Assembly: GCA_038998335.1 (NCBI GenBank)
Contig: JAVZHQ010000001.1
Location: 416,001 to 480,000, forward strand
Direction of reading: 5' to 3'
DNA: 64,000 nucleotides
DNA from: Candidatus Aenigmatarchaeota archaeon
GTDB taxonomy: Archaea; Aenigmatarchaeota; Aenigmatarchaeia; CG10238-14; SCSR01
Below the pieces are notes generated by a model. The model searched no databases. It was not told where the DNA came from and saw only the letters and a program-made list of their open reading frames with translations. Shown piece after piece: positions 3,911-27,600 of the stretch. A program made the translations under genes and the position numbers. Each line of letters begins with the position of its first letter. Within the stretch, counting starts at the first letter, position 1.

Positions 3911-4234
3911 ATGAGAAAAATAGTTTTAATAGTTCCATTGATTATTGTAGTTGTTGGAATAGTAGGATACTATTACTACTTAAGTCTAAAGGAAACAGAA
4001 GCTGCAAAAGAAGCTTGTATTCAAGCTTGTATGGAAGCTAAAGCCCAAGAAATGAATTTAAACGATGGACCTTGCCTTTCTAACAAAATAATAGAGAATT
4101 GGGTTTGTGATGTAGCTCATAGCCCAAGAGAGCCTGTAGACGATATAAAAGAAAACCAATGCCCAGAATATGGAAAAACAGCCTTTCATTTTGTTGAAGT
4201 GGACCCCAACTGCAATTTCATAAGAGCAGTTTAA
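3911..4234 (+). CDS. Small membrane-anchored Cys-rich exported protein
   Basis: ATG at 3911 (MRKIVL) gives an N-terminal TM helix followed by six Cys (GPCLS, WVCDVAH, NQCPEY). Confidence 0.7.
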   Translation: MRKIVLIVPLIIVVVGIVGYYYYLSLKETEAAKEACIQACMEAKAQEMNLNDGPCLSNKIIENWVCDVAHSPREPVDDIKENQCPEYGKTAFHFVEVDPNCNFIRAV

Positions 4235-18548: not shown

Positions 18549-18794
18549 TCACAAAGCATAGAGGGTAAACCAACTTAACAACCAAAATAAAATAAACGTA
18601 ACAAAGCTGTTATAAACTAAAACTCTTAATTTAACTTGTTTTTTGAAAAGAGGAAGCAAAACAAAGTAAACTATAAAAGGAAACGTTAAAGAAAAAATAA
18701 TGCTTCCGAAACTTTTAGAGAAATAATCTGAAATTACTCCACAAAAAATACCAGCTACTAAAAAAGCTATTGTGATTTTTTTAATCGGTTTCAT
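18549..18794 (-). CDS. Small 3-TM protein, EMC6-like archaeal family (tentative)
   Basis: Three TM helices ending FILFWLLSWFTLYAL; overlaps the rnhB stop. Confidence 0.55.
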   Translation of the reverse strand: MKPIKKITIAFLVAGIFCGVISDYFSKSFGSIIFSLTFPFIVYFVLLPLFKKQVKLRVLVYNSFVTFILFWLLSWFTLYAL

Positions 18795-19586
18795 CTTCTC
18801 CCTCTTTACAGTTTACTTTTTTGGAAAAGAAATCTTTTATTTTTTTCTGCCAAGATTTCTCGCCCAAAACTTCATCTTTTACCCATGGTTGTAACTTTTT
18901 TCCTTCTTCAAAGAGTTTTGTAGCTACGCTTTCCACAGTGTCCCAATGCCACCTTATAAAATTTGGTTTTTCTTTGTATTCTGTTAAAACTTTTTCTAAA
19001 AACTTTATAGTTCTGTAATCATGGCTATAGCCTACACCAAAATCAAAACCAACTTTTAACTTTAACTCTTCTATAGCTTTATCTCTTTCAACCTTAGCTA
19101 TTATCGAGGCAGCTGAAACTACAGGATATGTTTCATCTGCGTAATTTTCAACTATAAGCTTCAAATCTTTTCTCCTTAGATTTTCAGCAATTAATTTCTC
19201 AAACCTTTTGTTTTTAGAATGGTTAGTATTGCCTAAAGCATCTATGTAGATTACTTTAGCGTCTATCATATTTATTATTTCAGCCATCTTCATAGCTTCT
19301 ATTCTATCTAAATTTATTTTCTTCTTCATGTAACTGTTAATCCTACAGGCTGGAACTCTTAAAACTACCATGCTCTTTGCTATTTTTTCTATAATTTTAG
19401 CTAACTCTTCCCTTCTTTTTGGCGAGAGCTCTTTTGAATCTTTAACCCCTAAACTCTTCAACTTTTTTTCATCTTTCCTTTCTATTACCAAACCACAAAT
19501 TACCATTGGCCCTATAAGAGCTCCGCGGCCTGCTTGACGTTGCAAAAAGCAATTTCGTCTATGCCGCAGATTAGAATTTTCTTCAC
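18781..19586 (-). CDS. rnhB: Ribonuclease HII split by a 20-nt putative intron (exon 1 19586..19554, exon 2 19533..18781; 261 aa when joined)
   Basis: Exon 1 = MKKILICGIDE, exon 2 = AGRGALIGPMV...VKDSK...DA...VSAASIIAKVERD; joining restores GIDEAGRG. Confidence 0.9.
19534..19553 (-). other. Putative bulge-helix-bulge-type mRNA micro-intron in rnhB
   Basis: RNA: UCUGCGGC AUA GACG AA^A UUGC UUUUU GCAA CGUC AA^G CAG GCCGCGGA; 4-bp central helix with 3-nt bulges; canonical cuts remove exactly 20 nt. Confidence 0.8.
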
Positions 19587-19605
19587 CCCCTTTAAATTAA
19601 TTAAT

Positions 19606-19977
19606 TTATTTGTTTCTTTTAATAAACCAATGTTTGATTCCAATTTTTAAAATCATAAAATCTTCGAGCAAATCCCAAGCTTGATGTAAAACTAATGAAA
19701 GAAAAATTAATTTTAAAGGGAAACTAACTAAAATTGTTAAAAAAATGAAAAACAATAAAAATAAAAAGTTATGAAAGAGATATCTTCTTGGTTTGTTAAA
19801 TTTTATTATTTCATTAAAACCCTTTCTTAAAATTGTTGGCAAATGGTCAAAATCGATAATAATAGTTGAGAGAAAAACTAGAAAGGATAGAAACAAATCA
19901 AGCTTAAACAATGCTATTATCATGAACGCTAGAGAAAAATGAACGAACCAATGAAAAATTATATACCTGAAACTCAT
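19606..19977 (-). CDS. Membrane-bound metal-dependent hydrolase-like protein (YdjM-like)
   Basis: HWFVH, IDFDH, FHN and LHQAWD within TM segments. Confidence 0.7.
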   Translation of the reverse strand: MSFRYIIFHWFVHFSLAFMIIALFKLDLFLSFLVFLSTIIIDFDHLPTILRKGFNEIIKFNKPRRYLFHNFLFLLFFIFLTILVSFPLKLIFLSLVLHQAWDLLEDFMILKIGIKHWFIKRNK

Positions 19978-21696: not shown

Positions 21697-24600
21697 GTGG
21701 AAAAGGAAAACATAATAGAAAAGTTTGCTGAGTTTCTAAGGGAAGAGTATTATAATGATTTAGTGAACGCTGTAAATGAGGGAAAAAAATCAATCTATAT
21801 CGATTTTTCTCTTTTAGATAAATTTGACCCTGAGTTGGCAGATTATTTACTTGAAAATCCTGAAGAAGTTTTGGAGTTGGCTGAAGAAGCAATAAAACAA
21901 ATTGACTTGCCTGGAGAAGCAAAGTTAAGAGTAAGAATACTAAACCTTCCAGAGAGTAGAGAAATAAGAATAAGAAATATTCGTTCAGAGCATATAGGGA
22001 AACTAATCGCAGTAGATGGAATAGTAAAGAGAGCAAGTGAAATAAGACCAGAAGTTTCAGAAGTTATATTTTCTTGCCCAGAATGCGGAAGAGAAATAAC
22101 TGTTATCCAAACAGAAAGAACTATTAGAGCTCCTGTTGAATGTGAATGTGGGAATAGAAAAGGTTTCAGAATTTTAAAGCAAAAACTTTATGACGCTAGA
22201 TGGATTGTAATAGAAGAGCCTTTTGAAATAGTCTCAGGAGAAAGACCTTCAGAAATAATGGTTTTTCTCAAGGAAGATTTGACCTCTCCAAAAATGCAGA
22301 ATAAAACTGACCCAGGTAACAGGATTAAAATAGTAGGAATACTGAAAGAATTGCCAAAAAGAGTTAAAGGAACAAGGTCAAGACAAGTTGAAATATACAT
22401 AGAAGCAAATTCTGTTGAAAGTATAGAAGTTGAGTGGGAAGAACTTGAAATAACTCCAGAAGATGAGAAAAGAATCTTAGAGCTAGCAAAAGACCCAGAA
22501 ATTTATGATAAACTTGTTAGGTCGATAGGGCCAAGTTTATACGGACTAGAAGAAGTAAAAGAAGCAATAGTTTTGCAACTTTTTGGCGGAGAGCCTCATG
22601 TTCAAAAAGATAAGTCAAGGGTTAGAGGAGATATTCACATACTTTTAATCGGAGATCCTAGTTGCTTGGTTGGGGATGAAAGAGTAGTCTTGGGTAATGG
22701 TGCTATAGCCAAGATTTCTTCCCTGGGAAAAGAACATTTACAAAAAATTGATGTTCCAGTTTATTTAGCCGAAGGATATAAACGTGGTACTGCTAAAACA
22801 TTTCATAAGTATGAATTTCAACCTGTCATAGAAATTGTTACAGAGAGTGGTAAAAGTATTAAAGGAACTTTTAATCAGCCAGTTTTAGTGAAGAAAAAAC
22901 CCGGCAAATTTGGAAAATTTAAGAGCGAGTGGAAACGTTTAGATGAGATAAAAATTGGTGATGAAATAAGGGTTATCAACTGGATTCCATGTAGAATTTA
23001 TAAATATGTAGAAACTGGATGGAGTTTGAAAAGTTCAACCAAAAGGAAAAAAATTAAAGTACCTAAGATTCTGGACGAAAAGTTAGCAAGTGTACTTGGT
23101 TATTTGTTAGCAGACGGTTATGTACAAAAATACAGAGTAGGCTGTGCTTTCAATTATGAAGAATTAGACTTATTACCGAAAATGAAAAAGCTTTTTGAAG
23201 AAATTTTTGGTATAAAACCTAGGTTTGAATATCATAAAGAAAAAAATGGTACTAACGTAGAAATGGTTTTCAATTCTATCGAGCTTGCTGAAATTTTACA
23301 ATTTTTGAAAAATAAAAGGGTTCCCGATATGATACTATCATCAAAAAATAGTGTTGTTGCTGCTTTTCTTTCTTGGCTTTATGATGGTGACGGTTCTGTA
23401 ATTTCGGAAGGAAGAGGTAAAAATGGTATACTCTACAAAGCAAAAGATATAGAATTGCTACGTGACATTCAAATCTTATTGTTAAGATTTGGTATACATT
23501 CCCAAATATACGGAAATAATTTGATAATAAGACAAGCAAATTCTATAATAAAATTTGCCAATTCTATTGGTTTTAATTCCAAAAAAAAGAAAGAAAAACT
23601 ACAAAAACTTGTAGAAAATGTAGAAAAACTTAAAAGAAAAAGACATAATAAAAGATGGGAAAGAATAGTTAAAATTATTTACCATCCTCCAGAGAGTGTG
23701 TATGATATAGAAGTTCCTGTACATCATAAATTTGTGGCAAATGGTATAGTTTGTCATAACACAGCAAAAAGTGCTTTGATGAAGGTAGTTTCAAGTCTGA
23801 TTCCTCGCGGACGATATGTATCGGGAAAAGGAGTATCCATAGATTATGACGATCCTGTAATTTACAAAGAAAACGGATTAATCAAAACAGATATAATAGG
23901 TAGGTTTTGTGACAAGTTCTATAAGCAGGGTGAAGTAGGCTTTGTTAAAGTAAAAGGAATAGAAGTTCCTGTTTTTGATCCAACCACTTTTAAAATTTCG
24001 TGGAAACCTGTAACTTATATTTTTAGGCATCCAGCCGAAGAACCGTTACTTAAGTTAACACTCAGGACAGGTAGAGAGATAAGAGTAACACTAGGTCATT
24101 CAATTTATACTCTTGATAAGGGAGAAATCGTAACTAAGCGGGCTGATGAACTAAAGGTTGGAGATTTTATTCTTATACCTTCTCGAATTCCTCCTAACAA
24201 TAAAATAGTTAAAAAAATTATTGTTGCTGATTTAATTAAAAATCACCCTGAGATAAAGCTAAGAACTCTTAAAAAATTTCCAAAAGAGATAAAAGTTAAC
24301 GGCGAGCTTATGAGGCTGATTGGCTACTACATTGCTGAAGGTTCTTTGAATGAAAGTGGAGAACATTGGAAAGTGAGGTTTGATGTCGGAGAAAAAGATA
24401 ATGAAATTATTGAGGATATAAAACGTATTGTAAAGAAATTGTTCGGGCTTGAAGTGAAAGAATATAAAAAGAAAAATTCTAAGGGTAAAGCTCTAGAGAT
24501 TAACTCCAAGTTACTAGTGTTGATTTTTAAAGAAATCTTACAACTCGGAAAAAGTGCTAAGATGAAAAAAATCCCCCCAATAGTTTTTAACACATCAAGC

Positions 24601-27600
24601 AGGAATCAGCTCGAATTTATCAAAGCCTACCTCAAAGGAGATTATGGTGTTACAACCTCTAAAGAACTTACATCAGACTTACAATACTTATTTTTGCTTA
24701 ATGGGGTTATTTCATCGTTTTTGAAAAAAAGAATTAAAGGAAAGATAAAATTTCCGGACCATCTAAGTTTTGTTGACACAATTGTCTATGAAGTGAAAGC
24801 TCCAAAAGTGAGTAAACTGCTAAGGGGTATTTTTAGTATTTCCCGTATTCATGGTTATCCTCCCTTAAAGTGTTTTAGTTCAGAAAAAATTTTAAACCTA
24901 GCAAAGAGTGGTTATAAAAGGGTTTCGAAATCCGCGATGAAAATTCTATTTTCACCTTACAATCTCTTACTTTTCAGTAGGTTAGAAATGTTAAAAAAAG
25001 GTATAGATACAAAAAAATTATCAAGAATTTGTAAAATAAATAGAAAATCTGCTTTGCAGTATCTTAACTCTCTGGTGAAAAAAGGTATTGCGCTTAAAAT
25101 CGGTAAAAAAGGAGAAATAAAGTATTTTTTAACAGAAAAAGGAAAGCTTTTGCTTAAAGAAATTAAACTAATAAATTCTCTTCTCTTGTCAGATTTAGGA
25201 TTTGTAGAAATAAAAAAGATTGAGAGAGTTAAAGCGTCTAAAAGATTTGTATACGATTTGGGAGTTGAAAACTTTAATAATTTTATTGCTGGCTTCGGTG
25301 GGGTGATTTGTCATAACACTGCTGCCGGATTAACGGCAACTGTAGTAAGAGACGAAGAATTTCTGGGAGGATGGGTTTTAGAGGCTGGAGCTTTGGTTAT
25401 GTGCAATAGAAGTCTTTGCGCTATTGACGAATTCGAGAAAGTTGAGAAGAGCGATCAAATAGCTTTGCATGAAGCGATGGAACAGCAAAGCTATCATCCT
25501 TCTATGGAAATCCTTCTTGCAGACGGAAGAAAAGTAAAAATTGGAGAATTTGTAGATAAATTGTTTAACCTTTTAAAGAACAAAATTGTAAGGGGAATTA
25601 ACTGTGAGATTTTACCGCTTCACGAAATATATATCCCGATTCTTACAACTGATGGGCAAAAATTGTTTGTAACGAAAATTACTCAAGTGAGTAGACATAA
25701 ACCGCCAGAAAAGTTTATAAAAATAACTTACTCAAACGGCAGAGAAATAATAGTTACTCCAGAGCATCCTGTCTTTGTTTTTGAGGATTCGCTTACAACT
25801 AAACCTGCTACAAAAGTTAGGCCTGGAGATTTTGTACCAGGAGTCCGCCAGCTTCCCTTGATTACTTCATCTAAAAATCTAGAATTACCAAGCACATCTG
25901 GAAGAAAAAAAATTAATTTTCCAACAGAAATGTCAACAGATTTTGGGAAGTTTTTGGGGTATTTCATAAGTGAAGGTTACTCTTATTCAGGATCTTCTAA
26001 GGAAATAGGAATATCTAACACTTCCAAAAGTATAATTTCTGAAACACAAAACCTAACAAATACCCTATTTGGTATAAATGCATTAGATTATTCACAAATA
26101 AACAGAACCCAACGAATTATATCTTCATCTCTATTTGATTTTATGTTAAAAAATTTTCCTGAAATCATGCAAAAAGCAAGGAATAAGAGAATTCCTTCTA
26201 GCATCCTAACAGCAGAAAAAGAAATATTAAGAGAATTCCTGAAAGCTGCTTTTGAGGGAGACGGCTCTATTGAAAGTAATGCTATATGTTATAGAACTGC
26301 TTCTTCTAAACTAGCAGAAGATTATCAGGATGCACTTTTAAGGTTTGGTATTTTTTCAAGAATTGCATACGATAAGCATAATAACTCTTATAAAGTATAC
26401 ATAACAAGTGATAGTCTTGAAAATTTTGTAAGGATAATCTTAAGGAAAAAGTGCAAGAAGATCGAAAAATTAATAAAAACTTCTAAGAGAAAACTTAGAA
26501 AGCATGATGTTCTCCCTACTTCTGTAGGCCTAAAGATAAGAAATCTTATGAAGAAGGTAGGACTTGTCTACTCAGGCTATTTTAATCAGCATTTGAGATT
26601 TAATTTTGGAATAACTAGAGAGGTTTTCGATAAATACCTTAAACAGATTAGAGAGAAAATAGAAGAAAGCAAAAAAGCTGTAGAAGAAATCCAAGACTTT
26701 AAAGAACTTAGAAGGAAGTTAAATTACTCTCAAGAGTATGTAGCAAACCTTTTGAAAATAAAGAGAAGTAAGATAAACTATATAGAAAGGGGAGGGTACA
26801 CGAAAGAGATAAGAGAAAAATTGCTCAAGTTATTTAAAGAAAACGTAAAGAAAGAAATTAAGAAAGTTGAAGAAAGCTTAAACCAACTAGAAGATCTCAA
26901 AAAATTTAGATGGCTAAGAGTTAAAAAAGTGGATGTTTTAGAAAATAAAGGAAGCGTAAAAGCAGAATGGGTTTATGATGTAACCGTTAAGCCGACAAAA
27001 TGTTTTATAAGTAATGGGCTAGTTCTTCACAACACAATTTCAATAGCAAAAGCAAACATAGTAGCTACTCTTCCTGCAAGAACTAGCATACTAGCAGGAG
27101 GTAATCCAAAGCTTGGAAGGTTTGACCCTTACTTGCCGATAAAAGAGCAGATAGATGTTCCAGAAACTCTTTTAGCAAGGTTTGATTTAAAGTTTGCCTT
27201 AAGAGATGTGCCAAACCCTGAGCTAGACGCAAAAATCGCAGAACATATTCTTAAAGCAAGGCATTATGAAGAAGAAGAGATTAAACCAGAAATAGAACCT
27301 GATTTTATAAGAAAGTACGTAGCTTATGCTAGGAAGAACTGCCATCCGAAACTTACAAGAGAAGCTGGGGAAACGATAAAAGAATTTTTTGTTAAATTAA
27401 GAGAAAAGGTTGGAGGAGAAGAGGCTCCAATACCTATAACTTTAAGGCAATATGAGGCTCTTATAAGACTTGCTGAAGCTTCAGCTAAAGTTCAGCTTAG
27501 AAATGAGGTTACGAAAGAAGATGCTATAAGGGCAATAAATTTAATGAAAGCCTCTTTGAGACAGTTTGGTTTTGACCCAGAAATAGGAAAAATTGACATA

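Follow-up and report, generated by a model that had tools for sequence, protein, structure and literature searches.

The window, as we call the whole stretch analysed here, comprises 64,000 nucleotides (nt) of contig JAVZHQ010000001.1 (positions 416,001 to 480,000 of the forward strand, assembly GCA_038998335.1) of a Candidatus Aenigmatarchaeota archaeon. Our subject is its minus-strand gene rnhB, encoding RNase HII, in which the coding region of the catalytic motif DEAGRG is split by an insert of 20 nt. The host genome is 1.0 Mb long in 9 contigs, with an estimated completeness of 90% and a G+C content of 33%, and the sequencing runs containing this stretch are labelled as hot-spring metagenomes. 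Positions are those of the window, except where a contig is named.

The rnhB locus and its predicted RNA fold

RNase HII is encoded in a frame of 254 amino acids (aa) at 18781..19545, which matches the Pfam RNase_HII profile with an E value of 8.5e-43, starting at profile position 6 of 199. This means that the first five profile positions, with the catalytic Asp-Glu pair, are missing from the frame. The missing residues are found upstream, in another frame: after a GTG at 19586-19584, the codons for K K I L I C G I D E follow in frame and end with GAA at 19556-19554. This segment, (V)KKILICGIDE at 19554..19586, is called exon 1 below; delimited from the sequence and from its relatives, it carries the catalytic GAC GAA at 19559-19554 and has an alternative start codon, ATT, at 19577-19575. 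The 20 nt at 19553-19534 separate the Glu codon of ILICGIDE from the GCA of AGRG, and GCA GGC CGC GGA, from 19533 onwards, runs on into the 254-aa frame. Exon 2 (18781..19533, AGRGALIGPMV... to the stop codon), delimited by Pfam RNase_HII positions 6-199 and by its pattern of substitutions, contains no further stops. Read without splicing, exon 1 meets a stop after 24 codons; the spliced open reading frame (ORF) has 252 aa counted from the Asp codon. The first-pass annotation of this DNA had pointed out the Asp and Glu codons in another frame, the 20 extra nt between Glu and Ala and the early stop, and all were recovered when the sequence was recomputed.

The minimum-energy RNA fold of 19590-19510 is made of an 8 base pair (bp) exon-exon helix, an internal loop of 3 nt and 6 nt, a GACG/CGUC helix, a 3-nt bulge and a hairpin UUGC-U5-GCAA. 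It is identical to the bulge-helix-bulge (BHB) fold that the annotation had drawn, save that the 3′ site does not lie in a clean 3-nt bulge, as AAG runs on into three further unpaired bases, opposite AUA. The 5′ strand of the exon-exon helix (h) is UCUGCGGC at 19563..19570, in the codons Ile-Cys-Gly, and its 3′ strand is GCCGCGGA at 19522..19529, in the codons Gly-Arg-Gly. The central 4-bp helix (H) has as its 5′ strand GACG at 19556..19559, that is, the Asp codon and the first base of the Glu codon; these three strands are assigned from the fold and from the pair counts reported below. Then comes the 5′ bulge AAA (19553..19555), where the fold and the restoration of the frame predict a cut between 19554 and 19553. 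The putative intron (19534..19553, from the fold and the relatives) is composed of A, the hairpin UUGC-UUUUU-GCAA at 19552-19540 (stem h′), CGUC at 19539-19536, and AA. On the other side, the fold gives the 3′ bulge AAG at 19533..19535, with a predicted cut between 19534 and 19533, after which CAG (19532-19530) is unpaired opposite AUA (19562-19560). It holds in the sequence, as claimed earlier, that cutting after the second nt of each bulge removes 20 nt and gives GAC GAA GCA GGC CGC GGA. A self-splicing group I or group II intron was considered and discarded, the insert being 20 nt long and an Rfam scan of 19300-19800 giving no match at E values up to 1.

We consider it highly probable that these 20 nt are a BHB micro-intron, which would be removed from the rnhB pre-mRNA by the splicing endonuclease EndA and the ligase RtcB to give GAC GAA/GCA GGC. 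Once the gene is transcribed, GACG of the Asp and Glu codons would pair with CGUC, towards the 3′ end of the intron, giving the central helix of 4 bp. The intron hairpin would supply the outer helix on one side, and the 8-bp helix between the Ile-Cys-Gly and Gly-Arg-Gly codons would hold the exons on the other. The single alpha-type EndA of the host (188 aa) would then cut past the second base of each 3-nt bulge, and RtcB would join the exons, the intron probably being circularised. Translation of the spliced mRNA should yield a complete RNase HII with its DEAGRG catalytic motif. Cleavage and ligation in vivo, and the identity of EndA and RtcB as the responsible enzymes, are what we infer for rnhB from the comparisons that follow.

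Inserts in rnhB across the order

An RNase HII profile search of 118 species genomes of the same order gave a match in 113. In 34 of these the best match starts at profile position 6-9 and in 5 it contains stops; these 39 loci, which form the interrupted set, were all inspected. The other 74 consist of 73 matches that begin at position 1-2 and are free of stops, plus one fragment at a contig end; 21 of them were inspected directly and found to be uninterrupted. Thus 39 of the 113 rnhB genes are interrupted where DEAGRG is encoded, by inserts of 14-40 nt that occupy one of three points within an 8-nt span. Site A, after the Glu codon as in the host, is occupied in 20 genomes (14-23 nt). A second site, 8 nt downstream and inside the Arg codon as AG|A, is used in 13 genomes (28-40 nt), and a third, at +7 nt, in 5. 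One genome, G080, which is 56% complete, is ambiguous.

For each interrupted gene, a script sought the pair of cuts restoring DE[A/S]G[R/K]G..GP, and then scored the BHB geometry at those cuts. A cut after the second bulge base restored this motif in 39 of 39 genes. In 37, the cuts restoring DE[A/S]GRG lay in 3-nt bulges on either side of a central helix with all 4 bp formed. Shuffled inserts would be expected to give 1.17 fully paired central helices; since each parse was chosen as the best among 2-6 equivalent cut pairs, it is fairer to expect up to about 7. At the 5′ splice site of the host, the bulge AAA leads into the hairpin stem UUGC/GCAA of 4 bp, and h′ has at least 2 bp in 37 of the 39 genes, the exceptions being G102 and G080.

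Insert lengths at site A are 14, 15 and 16 nt (one gene each), 17 and 18 (two each), 19 (four), 20 (five), 22 (one) and 23 (three). Divided by three, they leave a remainder of 2 in eleven genes, of 1 in six, and of 0 in three, and the three in-frame inserts hold TGA or TAA. The occurrence of all three frames, together with stops in the in-frame inserts, is not how a frameshift mutation or a tolerated peptide insertion would behave. The ILICGIDE peptide is kept in the relatives, in whichever frame the length of the insert dictates.

An alignment of rnhB from relatives, proposed in the first-pass annotation as a check, located the insert at the same site in all four other members of the genus that have rnhB, in other genera and in a second family. 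Between the host and its congeners, the 20-nt insert differs at a few bases only, in the loop and at the third bulge position. Within genera the species share their intron states, and from one genus to another these are patchy; sister pairs with site A and with site +7 occur in one genus, and in another some species have an insert in rnhB and others lack it. These statements were drawn from a rough neighbour-joining tree without support values, which was used only for sharing within genera and for patchiness. The pattern suggests repeated loss, gain or shifting of the insert.

The same survey bears on the possibility of an assembly or sequencing artefact, in which the 20 nt would be absent from the DNA. 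All that favours it is the origin of the window in a metagenome-type assembly of 9 contigs. We give it a practically negligible probability, as independent assemblies of four congeners and of 34 more species carry inserts of different sequence at the same place, and between 0.78 and 0.82 of the words sampled from window positions 18700-19900 recur in the contigs of runs from three studies.

Could rnhB be a decaying pseudogene, with 20 nt of frameshifting insertion and a fortuitous fold? The literal frame is indeed broken, with the stop in exon 1, and the fold score is modest (see next section). Yet this is the sole rnhB copy in the genome, and its ratio of nonsynonymous to synonymous substitution rates (dN/dS) is 0.061-0.070 between the host (G000) and G001, G002, G003 and G005, at a dS of 0.86-1.43, which is near saturation. 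Spliced in silico, 38 of 38 complete interrupted genes gave full-length ORFs of 217-252 aa, and one more runs off its locus. Moreover, the insert persists with compensatory changes across genera and two families, and the exon 1 peptide is kept in a frame different from that of exon 2. Decay of the gene is hardly credible in view of these results. A second intact rnhB accompanied by relaxed selection, which the annotation had named as the outcome that would speak for a pseudogene, is not what the genome contains: exon 2 of the single rnhB is under strong purifying selection, and the gene is not decaying. As read from these genomes, rnhB is very probably intact, with an expression that would depend on RNA splicing.

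Base pairing was next counted on an alignment of the 20 site-A sequences, 19 of them distinct. Standard pairs make up 92.3% of the helix cells; shifting the 3′ partners by 1-3 columns brings this down to 28-46%. In six pairs both bases vary, and none of 500 shuffles attains the observed covariation score. In the h′ hairpin all four pairs covary, with stems such as UUGC/GCAA, CCUU/AAGG, UCCC/GGGA and CCUC/GAGG. The central helix is 98.7% paired and has one covarying pair, in which the synonymous change of the Asp codon from GAC to GAU is accompanied in three species by a change of the intron strand from CGUC to CAUC. The exon helix h is 87.5% paired; alignment pair 6-51 changes from GC to CG in 2 sequences. 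In two species, ACC replaces UGC in exon 1 and, to match it, CGG replaces CGC as the Arg codon. At the second site, the Gly codon's third base and the base that opens the intron strand form G-C, C-G, U-A or U-G.

Codon choice in the exons follows the helices. The flanking codons had been described as unusually GC-rich, and this was borne out: the 15 site-A genes with the main helix register all encode Arg as CGC, CGT or CGG, while in long ORFs of the host genome AGA and AGG account for 92% of Arg codons, CGN for 8.2% and CGC for 1.9%. Cys is TGC in all 13 site-A genes bearing this residue, versus TGT in 4 of 4 uninterrupted genes with Cys there. Five site-A genes of another genus have AGA for Arg, and in these the exon helix draws on different codons (GCCGG with CCGGU). 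Among the site-B genes Arg is AGA in 18 of 19, as needed for the split codon AG|A, and in uninterrupted genes it is AGR in 16 of 21.

These data also bear on an alternative in which the insert stays in the mRNA and is skipped by the ribosome, through frameshifting or a programmed bypass of the phage T4 gene 60 type. Such a mechanism would tolerate any insert length and internal stops, and a hairpin is present in the gap. However, take-off and landing codons do not match: in all 11 site-A genes examined, the take-off codon would be GAA and the three bases just ahead of exon 2 are CAA, TGA or TAA. The codon after take-off is AUU, not a stop. The flanking codons also differ among the three insertion points, and a bypass would need neither the conserved 4-bp helix between exon and insert nor two 3-nt bulges with cuts at base 2. 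We therefore regard ribosomal skipping as very improbable.

The start of exon 1 deserves a separate comment. The GTG proposed in the annotation is present at 19586-19584; it is however contained in a Shine-Dalgarno-like GGGGGTG (19584..19590, minus strand), and is out of frame or absent in 3 of the 4 congeners. It is in frame only in the host genome and G001, of the 5 members of the genus that bear rnhB, and a GGTG-type motif lies 5′ of exon 1 in most relatives. The conserved ATT at 19577-19575 sits 6 nt 3′ of the GGGGGTG motif and may be the real start, so that exon 1 would have 8 codons from ATT, or 11 from GTG. We also observed that 6 of the 39 interrupted relatives have no in-frame ATG, GTG or TTG before the Asp codon, and that many have ATT, ATC or ATA 4-7 nt after the GGTG motif. 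This hints at non-canonical AUU or AUA initiation of rnhB.

Splicing enzymes and points of doubt

The two enzymes named in the first-pass annotation, EndA and RtcB, are both encoded in the host genome. There is a single match to the EndA family, a protein of 188 aa with the N-terminal and catalytic Pfam domains. Its best relative of solved structure is the homotetramer of M. jannaschii (chain 1a79, E value of 1.5e-29, over the full length), from which it differs by an insertion of 6 residues just before the conserved His. A hetero-oligomeric (alpha-beta)2 enzyme is thus not indicated by this single match, though a very divergent beta subunit is possible. According to the excerpt of PMC5829648, DPANN archaea whose alpha4 EndA carries an extra loop also have many disrupted tRNA genes; the 6-residue insertion of the host may or may not be such a loop. 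One RtcB was found (E value of 7.9e-165). ARAGORN reported 46 tRNAs, 19 of them with introns, some of these calls being possibly wrong.

Several observations weigh against the removal of the insert by EndA and RtcB, and we collect them here. First, the motif in the host genome is relaxed (HBh′-like with a distal exon helix), not a strict hBHBh′: on the 3′ splice side AAG lies in a 3 × 6 internal loop and the 8-bp exon helix is 3 nt away, even if the position of the cut fits. In the site-A alignment, a G-C pair closing at the first base past the 3′ bulge is found only in G001 and G102. Second, the sole EndA belongs to the homotetramer (alpha4) type, which according to the excerpt of PMC5829648 was for a long time believed to accept only strict motifs. 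Third, rtcB is itself interrupted in the host, so that the supply of ligase would depend on the same pathway. Fourth, the fold of 19590-19510 has an energy of −23.7 kcal/mol with a z-score of −1.79, and 10 of 200 shuffled sequences fold equally well; with such a z-score the fold of a single sequence is weak evidence, and the weight rests on the relatives. Fifth, G080 has no good central helix, the one such case among the 39 interrupted genes. Finally, no RNA run figured among those matching the stretch, and two metatranscriptome runs of the study that was also the best DNA source, read to about 3% each, yielded 0 and 1 reads mapping to 20 kb around the uS10 gene, away from rnhB, which does not amount to a test. 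Our doubt comes down to three of these points: the RNA runs with their 0 and 1 reads, the relaxed 3′ side, and an EndA of a type once thought to be strict.

The relaxed 3′ side, the alpha4-like nature of the sole EndA and the interruption of rtcB could also be read in favour of another nuclease and ligase removing the insert as RNA, or of a cleavage serving regulation or decay and not leading to productive ligation. We think this quite improbable. The frame-restoring cut, in 39 of 39 genes, is that of the EndA rule, between bulge bases 2 and 3 (stated for cbf5 in the excerpt of PMC2738675), and the host depends on the same pathway for its many tRNA introns. In addition, purifying selection on exon 2 implies that a productive mRNA is made.

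Other interrupted genes, known introns and LAGLIDADG genes

It had been suggested that other housekeeping mRNAs of this lineage carry micro-introns. All ORFs of G024, a relative with an uninterrupted rnhB, were compared with the host genome by tblastn, and the reverse. The suggestion was borne out: similar inserts, likewise predicted to be introns, appeared in rtcB, in cbf5 and in the uS10 gene; as a single relative was compared, the resulting four interrupted protein genes in the host are a minimum. The genome scan for BHB-flanked insertions that the annotation had advised was successful in this form, by homology, which yielded the three additional genes. Conducted on the motif alone (4-bp helix, two 3-nt bulges, hairpin, and frames fused on removal), it showed no enrichment, with 3950 hits compared to 3944-4234 when the cut was shifted by 1-2 nt, because adjacent genes fuse by chance. 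A scan of the G024 comparison for short first exons returned rnhB only.

In rtcB, an 18-nt insert with two TAA at C1:120826-120843 splits HFGY/GFPIGG; the predicted motif has a helix GGCU/GGCU, bulges AUA and AAG, and a hairpin GCUU-AUA-AAGC. The two parts match the RtcB profile at 1-26 and 26-426. In cbf5, 12 nt with a TGA (C1:284133-284122, minus strand) split the catalytic Asp codon of GTLD/P, which encodes the residue that the crenarchaeal cbf5 intron disrupts too (excerpt of PMC2738675), and a 7-bp exon helix, a 3-nt bulge and a helix CCUU/GAGG can be drawn; the 5′ site lies in a loop, the motif being of the bulge-helix-loop type. One TGA inside the cbf5 domain occurs in 8 of 62 genomes of the family, namely all six of the genus and two others. 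The uS10 gene has a 29-nt insert at C2:127937-127965, with a helix CGGG/CCCG, bulges ACA and AAA and a perfect hairpin of 9-10 bp, which comes near to a canonical BHB. Its halves match the profile at 1-52 and 48-98. The gene is split at the same profile position in 10 of 67 family genomes, two congeners being unsplit, and contigs of two DNA runs from different studies cross the insert without gaps.

Other breaks found in the comparison were rejected as introns of protein genes. That near 109.9 kb of C2 is a boundary of RNA polymerase genes, those near 52.0 kb and near 307.9 kb of C1 are gene boundaries or intergenic, that near 772.9 kb of C1 is the boundary of two ribosomal protein genes, and those at 34.7 kb of C2 and 371.6 kb of C1 are intron-bearing tRNA genes. 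Three candidate inserts were noticed in G024 itself: a frame break in an undecaprenyl-pyrophosphate synthase-like gene (its C1, ~94.5-95.3 kb), a 33-nt in-frame insert with three stops in the gene of a 263-aa protein (C2, ~29.4-30.2 kb), and about 87 extra nt in an rRNA region (C4, ~66.2-66.5 kb). Interruption of rtcB is frequent across the order, as judged from profile matches: 9 genomes have stop-containing inserts, and many rtcB genes either show splits near profile positions 22-29, 47-49 and 183-187 or form part of frames of 840-1472 aa. From such sequence patterns, both inteins and several micro-intron sites are suggested for rtcB across the order.

A much wider proposal sees in ORF-less BHB micro-introns an entire level of gene organisation in this order, with repeated insertion or sliding in catalytic or most conserved codons of essential genes, so that functions in DNA repair, the ribosome and RNA modification would hinge on EndA and RtcB. 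It would cover rnhB with its three positions, rtcB, cbf5 (split in the codon that is also affected in Crenarchaeota), the uS10 gene and many tRNAs. We hold this proposal to be tentative, and rather unlikely as it stands. Were it true, the mRNA of the ligase would need the ligase, a self-sustaining loop that might act as a switch or as an addiction-like trap, and introns would persist because only an exact deletion is tolerated at such sites.

The closest known case is the BHB intron in the cbf5 pre-mRNA of Crenarchaeota (Desulfurococcales and Sulfolobales). In the excerpt of PMC2738675 this intron measures 16-44 bp, its splicing is confirmed by cDNA and linked to a hetero-oligomeric EndA, and pre-mRNA splicing is said to be confirmed for no other gene. 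This agrees with the statement in the first-pass annotation that mRNA introns of this type are known mainly in crenarchaeal cbf5. In the light of that excerpt, the rnhB insert resembles the crenarchaeal introns as a short ORF-less sequence in a protein gene, with a mostly relaxed BHB and cuts between bulge bases 2 and 3; it also interrupts the coding of a catalytic residue, has apparently been gained and lost in a lineage-specific manner, and even in its in-frame versions would still have to be removed. It differs in the gene concerned, in belonging to a DPANN-like order of small genomes, in lengths down to 14-15 nt and in having three insertion points within 8 nt. Furthermore, its host has a single alpha-type EndA, and splicing is predicted for rnhB whereas for cbf5 it was confirmed by cDNA.

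With non-canonical archaeal tRNA introns (relaxed HBh′ and hBH forms, as described in the excerpts of PMC5829648 and PMC6379350), it shares the geometry of the motif and the presumed enzymes. Unlike them, the substrate in rnhB would be an mRNA coding region, and the exon helix is built from codons, constrained both by the protein and by pairing. Inteins and group I introns with homing endonucleases likewise sit in the most conserved catalytic part of housekeeping genes with a patchy distribution; the rnhB insert, in contrast, has no ORF and no ribozyme, and is predicted to be removed as RNA by host enzymes. A further parallel is the unconventional splicing of HAC1/XBP1 in eukaryotes, which is stress-regulated and carried out by the endonuclease Ire1 on an intron bounded by two stem-loops. 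In both cases a protein-only endonuclease and a ligation of the RtcB type would act on an mRNA and change its reading frame; the rnhB case differs in relying on EndA, not Ire1, and on a BHB, not two stem-loops. Archaeal protein genes are generally treated as uninterrupted. A literature search of open-access papers and preprints, without their supplements, turned up no account of BHB introns either in rnhB or in DPANN protein genes, and the excerpt of a structural paper of 2025 (PMC12397907) cites only the cbf5 work for mRNA introns.

If the splicing of rnhB is real, about a third of the species in the order would need tRNA-type splicing to make RNase HII, and the same cells would need it for the ligase, Cbf5 and a ribosomal protein. 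Gene callers would mis-annotate such genes as truncated, frameshifted or pseudogenes, which would skew estimates of completeness and of metabolism in archaea with small genomes. The co-evolution between exon and intron at the level of codons would offer a clean natural data set on what EndA needs outside tRNA, and the presence of three insertion points within 8 nt would be informative about the gain, loss or relocation of such introns.

LAGLIDADG genes were also considered. The host genome has 31 LAGLIDADG domain matches, many of them inside very long frames. A profile built from the host genome's own domains detected no such gene next to rnhB in 60 loci, of which 30 included some 1.5 kb of flank and 30 some 0.3 kb; its sensitivity is limited, but it did recover two positive controls, beside rtcB and endA. 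A free-standing gene for a 279-aa LAGLIDADG endonuclease abuts rtcB, ending where rtcB begins, and at C1:371287-371646 a LAGLIDADG frame of 217 aa stops 17 nt short of a tRNA-Cys gene that has a 31-nt intron according to ARAGORN. In these two cases, endonuclease genes thus sit beside intron-bearing genes. Elsewhere in the window, on the plus strand at ~23077-26439 (C1:439077-442439), a frame of 2046 aa with six LAGLIDADG_3 matches looks like one gene with several inteins.

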